Source: a virus (lineage: Duplodnaviria > Caudoviricetes). From it: a DNA stretch of 64,000 bases. A program made the translations under genes and the position numbers. Position 1 is the stretch's first letter, and every line of letters begins with the position of its first letter. Below are positions 530 through 6,268 of the stretch, piece by piece. The notes under the pieces are model-generated. The model saw nothing but the letters and a program-made list of their open reading frames with translations. It did not search any database and was not told the DNA's origin. The stretch lies in IMG/VR virus record IMGVR_UViG_3300023175_000030, positions 935-64,934 of that record, one strand, 5' to 3'.

Positions 530-558
530 AATATAACCCTTTTCATCACAAATGTCAA
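530..558 (-). promoter_or_regulatory. sigma70-like early promoter TTGACA-N17-TATATT
   Basis: Exact -35, 17-nt spacer, A-rich upstream tract; same architecture recurs about 10 times in the window. Confidence 0.75.
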
Positions 559-587: not shown

Positions 588-662
588 TGGAGTGAACGAC
601 AGGATTCGAACCTGCATAATACGGATTTGCAATCCGTTGCCTAACCACTCGACCACGTTCAC
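588..662 (-). tRNA. tRNA-Cys (GCA)
   Basis: Acceptor stem GTGAACG/CGTTCAC, anticodon arm ACGGA-TTGCAAA-TCCGT, GGTTCGAATCC T-arm, U73 discriminator, encoded CCA. Confidence 0.93.
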
Positions 663-666
663 GAAA

Positions 667-774
667 CTATGGTTTTTTTTGATCTTTTTCCAAACACTTA
701 CCGCATTTAGTACCTATAAGGTGATACTTACTAGTATCTCCATCCTTAACTGCGTGACAAATGCAGAGATACAT
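667..774 (-). CDS. 35-aa minimal Bfd-like putative [2Fe-2S]/metal-binding peptide
   Basis: Manual translation MYLCICHAVKDGDTSKYHLIGTKCGKCLEKDQKKP; M-Y-x-C-x-C and G-x-x-C-G-x-C match the Bfd ligand pattern; start overlaps the iscU stop (TAATG). Confidence 0.65.
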   Translation of the reverse strand: MYLCICHAVKDGDTSKYHLIGTKCGKCLEKDQKKP

Positions 775-1151
775 TAGTGTTTTTCCTTGTAGTCCTTTAT
801 TGCGGCCTTGATTGCATCTTCTGCAAGAACTGAACAGTGAATTTTTACTGGGGGAAGGGCGAGTTCTTCCGCTATTTCTGTATTACGGATACACTCGGCG
901 TCTTCAAGACTTTTTCCTTTGACCCATTCAGTAAGTAAACTACTACTAGCAATAGCACTACCACAACCATAAGTTTTAAATTTTGCATCTTCGATAACAC
1001 CGTCATCATTTACCTTTATTTGCAATCTCATGACATCACCACAGGCTGGGGCTCCTACCATTCCTGTTCCAATATCATCTTCGTCAGGATCAAATTTACC
1101 TACATTTCTAGGATTTTCGTAGTGGTCAAGAACTTTCTTGGAGTATGCCAT
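774..1151 (-). CDS. iscU: Fe-S cluster scaffold protein IscU
   Basis: MAYSKKVLDHYENPRNVG, GAPACGDVMRLQI, FKTYGCGSAIASSS, LPPVKIHC: three conserved Cys and the HscA-binding LPPVK motif; start moved to ATG 1151 (SD GAGG). Confidence 0.95.
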   Translation of the reverse strand: MAYSKKVLDHYENPRNVGKFDPDEDDIGTGMVGAPACGDVMRLQIKVNDDGVIEDAKFKTYGCGSAIASSSLLTEWVKGKSLEDAECIRNTEIAEELALPPVKIHCSVLAEDAIKAAIKDYKEKH

Positions 1152-1320
1152 AAACCGCCTCTCTAAACGCAGGGTCTTTACCAAACTGAGATGCTGCCTG
1201 AGTTCTTTTCTTAGCCAATACCAAAGGTGAGTTCGGTTTGCGTTTTGCACGATATGAACCATGCGAACTCATCTTTGCAGTTTTCCTTACCTTTCCACTA
1301 GTTTTCATTGTCTTTGCCAT
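1126..1320 (-). CDS. small basic hypothetical protein (64 aa)
   Basis: ORF with GGAG SD, Lys/Arg-rich, packed between neighbouring genes. Confidence 0.6.
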   Translation of the reverse strand: MAKTMKTSGKVRKTAKMSSHGSYRAKRKPNSPLVLAKKRTQAASQFGKDPAFREAVYGILQESS

Positions 1321-1453
1321 TTACAATTCTCCAATATTCCCAAGTATTTTTTGTCACTGAGTCAGTAGTCTTATGAGAGTAATAAAAAGTGATACCACCA
1401 AATACCATTGGACACAAGAATACTGCAAGTAAACCTAACAGACCTACTTCCAT
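1298..1453 (-). CDS. small membrane protein (51 aa)
   Basis: Manual translation MEVGLLGLLAVFLCPMVFGGITFYYSHK...; N-terminal hydrophobic helix; GGAG SD; TAATG coupling to upstream ORF. Confidence 0.6.
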   Translation of the reverse strand: MEVGLLGLLAVFLCPMVFGGITFYYSHKTTDSVTKNTWEYWRIVNGKDNEN

Positions 1454-1623
1454 TATTCTCCGTCCCAATTCAACTCAGTAACTTGTTTTTGTTTAACGAT
1501 TTGGTTCTTGTCGAGAAATAATTTACTATCTCCCTTCAAACATTTGTTGACAATTTTATCAATTCTACCACGCTTCAGAAACTTATCAATCTTTTTGAGT
1601 TTTTTCTTTTTTAAAAATTTCAT
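1453..1623 (-). CDS. small Lys-rich hypothetical protein (56 aa)
   Basis: Manual translation MKFLKKKKLKKIDKFLKRGRIDKIVNKC...NWDGE; stop overlaps the next start. Confidence 0.5.
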   Translation of the reverse strand: MKFLKKKKLKKIDKFLKRGRIDKIVNKCLKGDSKLFLDKNQIVKQKQVTELNWDGE

Positions 1624-3335: not shown

Positions 3336-3980
3336 TCAAATCCAGTCAATATTGACGTTAATTACCGCTCTCAAATGCGAATTTATTGGATTTTGTCCTG
3401 TATGAAGGATAGAACCATCGAAGAAAACGATTCTGTTCTTTTTACTCTCAACTCTGTGTTCTATCTCTAGAGGAGAGTTTTTATCTTTACTTTCATCAGT
3501 AAAAAATATGGTGTGTCCATCATTATCATTAATATAATAGATAAACGAAATATGTTTATCCATAGTGTCTATATGTGGCACATTAAAATAGATAGGTTTA
3601 TTATTTGTCAATTGAGGTTGTAAGTTGCATTTTGCTCTTTGAACAGGAACTCTTTCGACACCAAAATGTGAATCTATTTTGAAAAGAATCTTAGACAAGT
3701 ACTCTTTGTAAAAATTTTGAGAAACAACTTCTCTTTCTTTGACGATATGATGAACCGCTTGGACTCCATCATTTACCAGTGGGTGGTTGTGAAGTCCAAA
3801 CGGATCGCCTTTATCGACTGTGGAAAAATTGTTTTTACGTTTTTGTTCTGCATAACCAAAGTACCAAGGGAATTCATAATCTAGGCAAAGATTTTCCATA
3901 TCGTTTGCAACTCTCTCATCTAAAAAAGAGTCAATTACTAGATATCTTTTCCCTCTGAGAATACTACTCTCATGTGTCAT
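3336..3980 (-). CDS. 2OG-Fe(II) oxygenase family protein
   Basis: HxD (PHID), IYYINDNDG, distal H (SILH) and R (RAVIN) of the double-stranded beta-helix fold. Confidence 0.85.
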   Translation of the reverse strand: MTHESSILRGKRYLVIDSFLDERVANDMENLCLDYEFPWYFGYAEQKRKNNFSTVDKGDPFGLHNHPLVNDGVQAVHHIVKEREVVSQNFYKEYLSKILFKIDSHFGVERVPVQRAKCNLQPQLTNNKPIYFNVPHIDTMDKHISFIYYINDNDGHTIFFTDESKDKNSPLEIEHRVESKKNRIVFFDGSILHTGQNPINSHLRAVINVNIDWI

Positions 3981-3995
3981 TACAAAACTTTCTTT

Positions 3996-4559
3996 TTATC
4001 GAAGACGATAATTAGTATATACTTCGATTGCATCACCTACATTATATCGTGTTCCAGTTTTCTGGCGAATCAGAGTACCATTCACATCTACTGTTACAAA
4101 GTAGTGAGTAATAAAGGTTTCTTGCTGATGTGTGTAGGTAGTAAAACAACGGTTTTGAATCTGAGTTGAAACAACTCCACCAGGCTGATACACATTACCA
4201 TAAGTGTTTGGCATTTGTTGACTTCCTATAAGTCCACCAATAACAGCACCTACATTGCGGTTATGTTTTCTGGCATCACCTCTACCGATCTGATGTCCGA
4301 TAATACCACCAATAATAGCACCACCAAGAACATTACCAGCGTTATTATTTACAATACCACCACCATTATAAATGGTTCCACCATTATAGACAGGAACTTG
4401 ATATTCACTACAAACTTGTTGCGGTACTCTGTTTACATGTGTACCGTAAATCGGGTCGACTTGTACAACTGTACCAATAACACTCTGAGCATTTACTGAC
4501 GGAGCAATAAAGAGTGCAACTAGTGCAACAACTGCAGAGAAGATTTTAAACTTGTTCAT
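3996..4559 (-). CDS. exported glycine-zipper 2TM domain protein (YcfJ-like)
   Basis: Signal peptide (..VNA/QS), LGGAIIGGIIGHQIGRG and VGAVIGGLIG glycine zippers. Confidence 0.8.
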   Translation of the reverse strand: MNKFKIFSAVVALVALFIAPSVNAQSVIGTVVQVDPIYGTHVNRVPQQVCSEYQVPVYNGGTIYNGGGIVNNNAGNVLGGAIIGGIIGHQIGRGDARKHNRNVGAVIGGLIGSQQMPNTYGNVYQPGGVVSTQIQNRCFTTYTHQQETFITHYFVTVDVNGTLIRQKTGTRYNVGDAIEVYTNYRLR

Positions 4560-4628: not shown

Positions 4629-5042
4629 TTACTCATTTCTTAAAGATTTTTTCTCTAAACTCAACTTATCCTTTAGAGACATTGCATAGGCAGCGACTGC
4701 CAGAACTAAAATTGCAGAAGCTTCTGCAACTAATATCCAAGGGTCTGCCTCCTTACTATGTAATACAATCAGTCTGCACAATGCAGTCATTGCGATAATA
4801 ATAGGTAGGGTGACTGGAATTCTATTACTTACATAAAACGCACCCACCATACCAATAATTTCTGTATAGATAAACAAAAGAAATAAATCTGCAAGTTCAA
4901 TCTTCATGATTTGAATCATCTCAATTACATCAAATGATGCAGCAAGTACAGTTAAGATTCCAATCACTGCCAACATAATCTTCTCTGTGAGAACTGTTGT
5001 CCAGTGTAGTCCCTTGTTTATTTCAAAGTTTAAGATTTTCAT
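4629..5042 (-). CDS. psiE: phosphate-starvation-inducible PsiE family membrane protein
   Basis: Four hydrophobic segments; LFLLFIYTEIIGMV...RIPVTLPIIIAMTALCRLI signature. Confidence 0.85.
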   Translation of the reverse strand: MKILNFEINKGLHWTTVLTEKIMLAVIGILTVLAASFDVIEMIQIMKIELADLFLLFIYTEIIGMVGAFYVSNRIPVTLPIIIAMTALCRLIVLHSKEADPWILVAEASAILVLAVAAYAMSLKDKLSLEKKSLRNE

Positions 5043-6089: not shown

Positions 6090-6174
6090 TGGTGGGTGGG
6101 GATGGATTCGAACCAACTCAACTTTCGTGTCAGATTTACAGTCTGATGCGACTCACCATCTTCGCCGCCCACCC
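6090..6174 (-). tRNA. tRNA-Tyr (GTA)
   Basis: Acceptor GGGTGGG/CCCACCC, anticodon arm TCAGA-CTGTAAA-TCTGA, long variable arm, GGTTCGAATCC, A73-CCA. Confidence 0.9.
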
Positions 6175-6180
6175 ATTGTT

Positions 6181-6268
6181 TGGTAGCCGCAGCCGGACTC
6201 GAACCGGCACGGCCGTTACAGCCTACGGATTTTAAGTCCGTTATGTCTACCAATTCCATCATGCGGCC
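6181..6268 (-). tRNA. tRNA-Leu (TAA)
   Basis: Acceptor GGCCGCA/TGCGGCT, anticodon arm ACGGA-CTTAAAA-TCCGT, long variable arm, GGTTCGAGTCC, CCA. Confidence 0.93.

Follow-up and report, generated by a model that had tools for sequence, protein, structure and literature searches.

Is the open reading frame (ORF) of 35 amino acids that lies between iscU and a tRNA-Cys gene in a T4-like viral genome fragment really a gene, and what would so small a four-cysteine protein do for a phage? The question is raised by a stretch of 64,000 nucleotides, positions 935 to 64,934 of IMG/VR record IMGVR_UViG_3300023175_000030, which as a whole is called the window in the following. The record comprises 64,934 bases and is 40% complete, and all gene absences given for it hold for that portion only. 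An earlier note, made from the letters of the window alone, had described the three genes as a micro-operon with a split, miniaturised NifU-like module which mobilises iron or iron-sulfur (Fe-S) clusters during infection. We find that the ORF is a conserved gene and, by profile comparison, a shrunken homologue of the bacterioferritin-associated ferredoxin (Bfd), which we call mini-Bfd.

The positions of the three features and their common minus strand (Table 1) were confirmed. The ORF translates to MYLCICHAVKDGDTSKYHLIGTKCGKCLEKDQKKP and has the cysteine pattern C4-x-C6-x17-C24-x2-C27, and the spacer of 17 residues between the cysteine pairs had been described correctly. The proposed TAATG coupling is present as well: the ATG of the ORF (774-772) has one base in common with the TAA stop of iscU (776-774). 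The iscU frame itself opens with the ATG at 1151, and the two ORFs lie in different frames. Four nucleotides (663-666) separate the stop of the 35-aa ORF from the 5' end of the tRNA, also as described.

Related loci were searched in IMG/VR with a degenerate DNA motif coding for M-Y-[aliphatic]-C-[aliphatic]-C, a gap of 12-22 codons and C-G-x-C. At least 118 stretches matched. Among the matches listed 116 of 118 keep the reading frame; their spacers have 21 aa (77), 17 aa (32) or 19 aa (7). The two that are out of frame look like chance. With the gap set to 17 residues the scan gave 37 loci, which is the complete listing for IMG/VR. Many family members have a total of 34-42 aa and are close to the window peptide, for example MYLCICNAVKE.DKDRYHLIGTNCGKC. 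For codons 7-23, which are the 17 codons left free by the motif, 19 distinct sequences gave a proportion of synonymous differences (pS) of 0.79, at which synonymous sites are near saturation, and a proportion of nonsynonymous differences (pN) of 0.22. The pN/pS ratio of 0.28 indicates purifying selection on the 35-aa frame. Because the motif recurs in frame and the frame is under purifying selection, the ORF is beyond chance.

The family is also found among public gene calls. The exact window peptide belongs to cluster P0017 (2 members, 26 contigs) and is present letter for letter in the ESM Atlas, there without a usable feature match or a structure model. A profile search of 5.8 billion proteins, whose query alignment was headed by a natural member of 42 aa, revealed 50 related clusters; none of them has a precomputed Pfam domain, and seven carry the automatic JGI name 'bacterioferritin-associated ferredoxin'. 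At E<=1e-3 the full HMMER pass over 1.84 billion representatives gave 267 clusters, of which 49 reach E<=1e-10. The 189 returned proteins have mostly spacers of 21 aa (88) or 17 aa (68), more rarely of 19 aa (6), 22 aa (6), 18 aa (3), 24 aa (2) or 16 aa (1), and the canonical spacer of 30-33 aa (9) occurs at the weak end of the list only. The ORF between iscU and tRNA-Cys is a genuine conserved gene.

Three results support the earlier assignment of the peptide as a miniaturised four-cysteine protein of the Bfd type. A profile of 59 family members has as its four best matches in the PDB chains of Pseudomonas aeruginosa Bfd (4e6k_G with an E-value of 4.2e-7; 6e6r, 6e6q and 6e6s with 1.6e-6 to 6.1e-6). 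The 17-spacer family, compared by hhalign with 55 cellular Bfds, matches them at a probability of 97% (E 8.8e-11), and the mini form shows a gap of 13+1 residues. One N-terminal motif served to gather both alignments, so that this end is inflated; the PDB match is independent of that. In a six-frame search the Pfam family PF04324 (Fer2_BFD) matches the ORF as two pieces, profile positions 1-12 and 30-43. The family holds the Bfd-specific C-x-C and G-x-x-C-G-x-C loops, and all four cysteines are invariant in its alignments, although fixed by the search motif in most rows. In the cellular Bfd alignment C4, C6, C38 and C41 are invariant and the spacer has 31-32 residues. AlphaFold2, run with the family alignment, gave a single short helix at residues 14-19 (mean predicted local distance difference test score, pLDDT, 77.4; predicted template modelling score, pTM, 0.37). 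On the strength of the three matches mini-Bfd is a homologue of Bfd which keeps both cluster-binding loops and the region of the first helix, and it has lost 13-14 residues of the spacer, roughly the second helix, together with the C-terminal helix.

We also looked for mini-Bfds in cellular genomes, using the same motif on one genome per species of 185,579 prokaryote species. Of the 75 matches 70 are out of frame; besides duplicates and short unrelated frames they comprise 56 distinct ordinary Bfds with spacers of 28-36 residues. The five in-frame matches are unrelated junk, so no true mini-Bfd was found with this motif in the 185,579 genomes; the motif is strict, and therefore divergent cellular forms could be missed. 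Among 50,697 GenBank phages tblastn of the window peptide gave chance matches only (E 5) and tblastn of a 53-aa member with 21-residue spacer gave none, and PHROGs contains no family for three mini-Bfd members. As far as searched, the forms with 17-21-residue spacers are confined to uncultured viral and metagenomic sequence.

In several loci the mini-Bfd module is also present as an N-terminal, in-frame extension of a larger protein. Such proteins have 648-650 aa (L096, L136, L155, L190), 529 aa (L197), 249-254 aa (L156, L172, L185), 161-162 aa (L113, L160, L278) or 141 aa (L102, L128, L141, L195). Several of them have a methionine soon after the CxxC, and some may be two adjoining genes with no stop in between. 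The continuation in L197 presumably represents a T4 UvsW-type helicase, which it resembles by eye.

How closely are these genes tied to iscU? Among the matches listed, 24 of the 116 in-frame loci encode IscU within the fetched stretch, in each case on the strand of the Bfd-like gene, which lies downstream of iscU in 22 of these 24; in the fetched stretches of the other 92 no phage iscU was found. The distribution is uneven within the 17-spacer subfamily, where 10 of the 13 short-form loci (<=42 aa) hold IscU and the fetched stretches of all 24 long-tail loci (>=51 aa) are devoid of it. In five of the ten, L143, L164, L150, L281 and L192, which together encode three distinct peptides, mini-Bfd abuts the iscU stop by TAATG or TGATG. 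Four others (L154, L162, L166, L282) show the order iscU-iscA-bfd, the middle gene being assigned to PF01521 (E 3.8e-14), and in the remaining one IscU is 4.2 kb away from mini-Bfd. Starts that overlap the preceding stop as TAATG or TGATG were seen after iscU, iscA and a MazG-like gene, and a one-base stop/start overlap was seen at the start of 19 of 73 distinct family genes. The linkage to iscU is real and confined to the short-form clade of the 17-spacer subfamily.

The genes directly next to the 73 distinct family genes vary widely, with an iron theme. Upstream we found NifU_N (3), Fe-S_biosyn (2), the large subunit of ribonucleotide reductase (RNR) (4), TauD (4) and JmjC (2), as well as cytidylyltransferase (5), SNase (4), MazG (3) and T4 core genes. 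Downstream neighbours are heme oxygenase (2), a protein with IscA and Nfu parts, IscU and radical SAM; the gene that follows mini-Bfd in L143 encodes the radical SAM protein. The IscA+Nfu fusion, which is NfuA-like, follows the mini-Bfd of a 21-spacer locus (L084:9105-9683, minus strand), and all three modules of the NifU type therefore appear around mini-Bfds, across different phages.

For the function of such a protein the cellular Bfd is the obvious guide. Bfd docks on bacterioferritin (Bfr) and passes electrons from its [2Fe-2S] cluster via heme to the ferric core, upon which Fe2+ is released. M1, Y2 and L5 of the P. aeruginosa protein sit in the Bfr pocket (PMC11303784). When Bfd is lost, iron stays locked in BfrB and the cell runs acutely short of it (PMC7760384). 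By its sequence the window peptide has M1, Y2 and I5 at the docking positions. Among the 17-spacer proteins retrieved by the profile 53 of 68 begin with MY, and position 5 is I, V or L in every one.

The reading that we favour is that mini-Bfd would bind a [2Fe-2S] cluster and serve as a one-electron shuttle, docking on the bacterioferritin of the host via the retained Bfd face (M1, Y2 and the hydrophobic residue 5). The released Fe2+ would feed the co-expressed IscU and the iron enzymes of the phage, class I RNR and 2-oxoglutarate (2OG)-Fe(II) oxygenase, both of which are encoded in the record, and Fe-S assembly during infection would have more usable iron at its disposal. Metal, partner and direction of electron flow are all three things that we infer, and that mini-Bfd is a [2Fe-2S] shuttle raising the iron supply, most likely by unlocking host bacterioferritin, is held tentatively, at somewhat less than even confidence. 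One 100%-complete genome of 162 kb contains a mini-Bfd and no IscU, which fits a partner provided by the host.

Several observations weigh against this reading. Seen from the side of IscU, the association is loose: among the best 80 of 589 confirmed IMG/VR IscU loci (IscU 78-90% identical) none has a mini-Bfd directly downstream of iscU. What follows iscU differs greatly among these 80 loci and includes genes for the RNR beta subunit, A-type carriers and many other proteins, and a Bfd-like ORF lies within 3 kb of iscU in five of them, about 800 nt downstream in L032, L033 and L037 and upstream in L069 and L071. The claim that the peptide is linked to iscU in related phages therefore stands for the short-form clade, in which the same overlap is found, but not for the nearest relatives of the window IscU. 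Auxiliary genes cluster generally in T4-like phages, and the tallies of immediate neighbours take no account of this. No ferritin-like gene was found in five large mini-Bfd contigs, two of which have IscU elsewhere, nor in the record. Residue Y2 is replaced by Ile in 9 of 68 17-spacer and 25 of 88 21-spacer proteins, and the conservation of M1, Y2 and position 5 is inflated because the search motif partly imposed these residues and the profile was made from motif-selected sequences.

The domain assignment has its weak side, too. Fer2_BFD matches the window peptide with an E-value of 0.2 and 12.4 bits, below the gathering cut-off of 26 bits; four other family members reach 12.5-21.2 bits and L032 gives no match, compared with 52.4 bits for a cellular Bfd control. 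The score falls short because the middle of the PF04324 domain is missing from the mini form. A Foldseek search of the PDB with the 35-residue AlphaFold2 model gave no matches, a result which is uninformative at that size. Finally, an operon in which mini-Bfd is so tightly coupled to iscU and iscA fits Bfr as the partner no better than it fits IscU itself.

Mini-Bfd would then be a dedicated electron donor of the phage iron-sulfur cluster (ISC) module and directly reduce a persulfide or a cluster on IscU, a role proposed also for the permanent [2Fe-2S] central domain of NifU and for the Fdx of the isc operon, with no bacterioferritin involved. The one-base overlap is shared with iscU in the window and five further loci and with iscA in the iscU-iscA-bfd loci, and this iscU-iscA-ferredoxin order mirrors the bacterial isc operon. 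The IscA+Nfu-like and radical SAM genes next to the mini-Bfds of L084 and L143 point in the same direction, as does NifU, whose central [2Fe-2S] domain is proposed as electron donor to the IscU-like domain and as equivalent to the ferredoxin in ISC (PMC13066941). The listed loci and long-tail 17-spacer loci with no IscU in the fetched stretch, like the complete genome, speak against such a donor; moreover, the peptide begins as a free-standing Bfd does (M-Y-x-C-x-C), unlike an internal domain. A complex prediction of IscU, two [2Fe-2S] and mini-Bfd gave ipSAE values of 0.00 and 0.00 in a single run without controls, which counts neither for nor against the pairing. An electron donor to IscU alone is a serious but rather doubtful explanation. 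The two readings, unlocking of bacterioferritin and donation to IscU, are compatible with each other.

It is considerably less probable that the Bfd cysteines were kept and the [2Fe-2S] cluster lost, which would leave a Cys4 knuckle that holds zinc or, as in rubredoxin, a single iron and serves structure or regulation. The best, though weak, Pfam match of the window peptide is zinc_ribbon_6 (PF14599; E 0.034, 14.5 bits, under the 27-bit cut-off), but the first cysteine pair is C-x-C and not C-x-x-C, so that the peptide lacks the two CxxC knuckles of a zinc ribbon and has instead the C-x-C and G-x-x-C-G-x-C loops of Bfd. The loss of 13-14 spacer residues would remove much of the Bfd fold, and some members are N-terminal in-frame extensions of larger proteins; both would suit a knuckle, as would the unrelated CxxC...CxxC ORF which takes the same slot after iscU in locus L004 (see below). 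The profile homology is to Bfd and not to zinc ribbons, however, and iron and Fe-S genes dominate the neighbourhood. A decoy that sits in the place of Bfd on the host's bacterioferritin, or gets in the way of another Bfd partner, with no productive electron transfer is very improbable: it would account for docking residues kept while the rest of the fold was trimmed, but a pure decoy needs no invariant cluster cysteines (motif-fixed in most rows), and locking iron away is at odds with a co-expressed scaffold that consumes it.

The tRNA-Cys gene had been regarded as a co-transcribed member of the micro-operon. It is not a family trait: among the matches listed none of the 118 family loci carries a tRNA-Cys, and any tRNA at all was found in 10 of 118. 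A tRNA-Cys that serves the cysteine-rich module was rejected on this count. Locus L004, which is among the closest to the window by its IscU (90%, tied with L002 and L003) and shares the order of Gly-zipper protein, 2OG oxygenase and iscU, has tRNA-Trp and tRNA-Cys about 430 nt after iscU and no mini-Bfd. This arrangement and the absence from the listed family loci argue that the tRNA-Cys belongs to a local tRNA cluster of the lineage. Judged by the geometry, it is probably on the same transcript as mini-Bfd. In the mini-Bfd slot of L004 lies an ORF of 54 aa (L004:3395-3556, plus strand) with the pattern CxxC...CxxC, which is unrelated and has no Pfam family. It may be that a small four-cysteine protein recurs behind iscU and that different proteins can fill this place.

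The remaining features of the window that bear on the unit are collected in Table 1. A consensus scan revealed no terminator-like or notable promoter site between iscU, the 35-aa ORF and tRNA-Cys. The promoter-like site ahead of the next gene likely marks the 3' boundary of the unit, and the very basic 64-aa ORF is possibly its first gene.

Table 1. Position of the iscU, mini-Bfd and tRNA-Cys genes and of further features in the window.
Feature	Position	Strand	Evidence or remark
iscU, 125-aa Fe-S cluster scaffold, gammaproteobacterial type	774..1151	-	PF01592 NifU_N E 3.9e-54; phrog_8429
mini-Bfd, 35-aa four-Cys protein, 17-residue spacer	667..774	-	ORF, family profile, pN/pS
tRNA-Cys (GCA)	588..662	-	ARAGORN
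sigma-70-like promoter TTGACA-17-TATATT, 11/12	530..558	-	consensus scan only; ahead of next gene (start codon 498)
very basic 64-aa ORF	1126..1320	-	overlaps iscU start by 26 nt; no Pfam family
2OG-Fe(II) oxygenase	3336-3980	-	
secreted glycine-zipper protein	3996-4559	-	
PsiE (phosphate-starvation-inducible) homologue	4629-5042	-	E 1.1e-18
tRNA-Tyr(GTA) + tRNA-Leu(TAA) pair	6090-6268	-	5.4 kb from tRNA-Cys

Contigs from RNA libraries of two different studies cover 638-1270 and 646-1124, and each crosses the junction between iscU and the 35-aa ORF, with 4 differences. A further contig extends from 923 to 1316 and, like the one covering 638-1270, reaches into the 64-aa ORF. Metatranscriptomic libraries can contain DNA, and the contigs therefore show presence in RNA libraries and are not proof of transcription. 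Positions 532-619 are uncovered in all four RNA runs and the long contigs stop inside the tRNA; these ends are not readable as transcript end or tRNA processing, and the tRNA junction is not bridged by at least 31 letters. Contigs in two RNA libraries, X2 and X3, join 1316 to 1450 and skip 133 bases (1317-1449), which hold most of a hydrophobic 56-aa ORF (1298-1468, minus strand). The hydrophobic ORF thus seems to be missing from a variant strain.

The IscU of the window is of a well conserved kind. Its residues C37, D39, C63, H105 and C106 and the LPPVK motif are invariant across 46 viral homologues, and at 87% identity it matches the IscU from a marine metagenome-assembled genome of the Alteromonadaceae, which also encodes a canonical bfd followed by bfr, a point in favour of the bacterioferritin reading. 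Among 400 sampled genomes of the class 173 match the window IscU at E<=1e-20, and the top matches are all 83-87% identical; at this degree of conservation the host is not resolved from IscU. The window itself is a fragment of a T4-like myovirus, with a gp43-type DNA polymerase, a UvsW-type helicase, a gp46-like nuclease, tail sheath, terminase and portal, the latter being about 51% identical to pelagimyophage and cyanomyophage portals alike. All 37 ORFs of at least 200 aa are on the minus strand, the GC (guanine plus cytosine) skew is negative throughout positions 1-64000, and the GC content is 0.32-0.37. The 2OG-Fe(II) oxygenase and the glycine-zipper protein are syntenic with the relative L004. 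No ferritin, A-type carrier or radical SAM gene was found in the record, and neither PF01106 (Nfu) nor PF00266 (cysteine desulfurase, NifS/IscS) has a match in it.

Iron is limiting over much of the ocean, and phages cannot replicate without iron enzymes, among them RNR, 2OG oxygenases and Fe-S proteins. A bolder version is that the mini-Bfds of 31-42 residues are the smallest natural [2Fe-2S] ferredoxins, invented by viruses, and dock on host bacterioferritin, emptying its iron on demand to a co-translated IscU. They would then form a previously unrecognised class of auxiliary genes by which marine phages tap the stored iron of their hosts in iron-poor seas; this strikes us as rather unlikely. 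Should a cluster be bound, the lower size limit of a [2Fe-2S] protein would be at about 31-35 residues, which would offer a minimal scaffold for protein design, and with a synthetically accessible peptide the intracellular iron acquisition of phages would be directly testable. The family also marks a blind spot of annotation, being under the Pfam cut-off, without a PHROG and without a member from a cultured phage in the collection searched.

How do these proteins compare with known systems? With Bfd (PF04324; P. aeruginosa 4e6k, 6e6q-s) mini-Bfd shares the C-x-C...C-x-x-C pairs, the M-Y-x-C-[ILV]-C N-terminus, the G-[TS]-x-C-G-x-C loop, the form of a small stand-alone protein and, by profile, homology. 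It differs in its spacer (17 versus 31 residues) and in its length (35 aa versus 56-73 aa in the PDB chains and about 62-89 aa in cellular proteins), and it is encoded by a phage beside iscU and not beside bfr.

The central domain of NifU belongs to Fer2_BFD. As in NifU, an IscU-type scaffold with its cluster ligands and a Bfd-type four-cysteine module are made together; unlike in NifU, they are two polypeptides in different frames which are split by a TAA stop, the Bfd-type module has half the size, and an Nfu domain and NifS/IscS were not found in the record. Of the split NifU-like module proposed earlier, the coupling of IscU with a Bfd-type piece holds, but NifU is an analogy only, given the start like that of a free-standing Bfd and the absence of Nfu and cysteine desulfurase from the record. 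The Fdx of the isc operon is an adrenodoxin-type [2Fe-2S] ferredoxin, which is encoded downstream of iscU and iscA and is the reductant for cluster assembly. Mini-Bfd is of an unrelated fold and family, and no sequence relationship to Fdx appeared in any search.

T4-like marine phages were reported by Nishimura et al. 2017 (PMC5332604) to carry a gammaproteobacterial-type IscU and A-type carriers beside genes for Fe-S client proteins, and the window fits this group, including the type of its IscU. The main text of that paper lists radical SAM, Cas4, Grx, PaaD and ClpP, and mentions ferredoxin and Bfd 0 times. No description of a phage-encoded Bfd was found in the full-text literature searched, where a mention of bfd concerns a host gene and supplementary tables were outside the search. 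The Bfd-type ferredoxin as a kind and the viral iscU and A-type carriers are thus already known, and some relatives carry JGI labels. What is new is that the miniaturised forms fall into discrete subfamilies, that within the range of the searches these are restricted to viruses, and that their translation is recurrently coupled to that of iscU and iscA.

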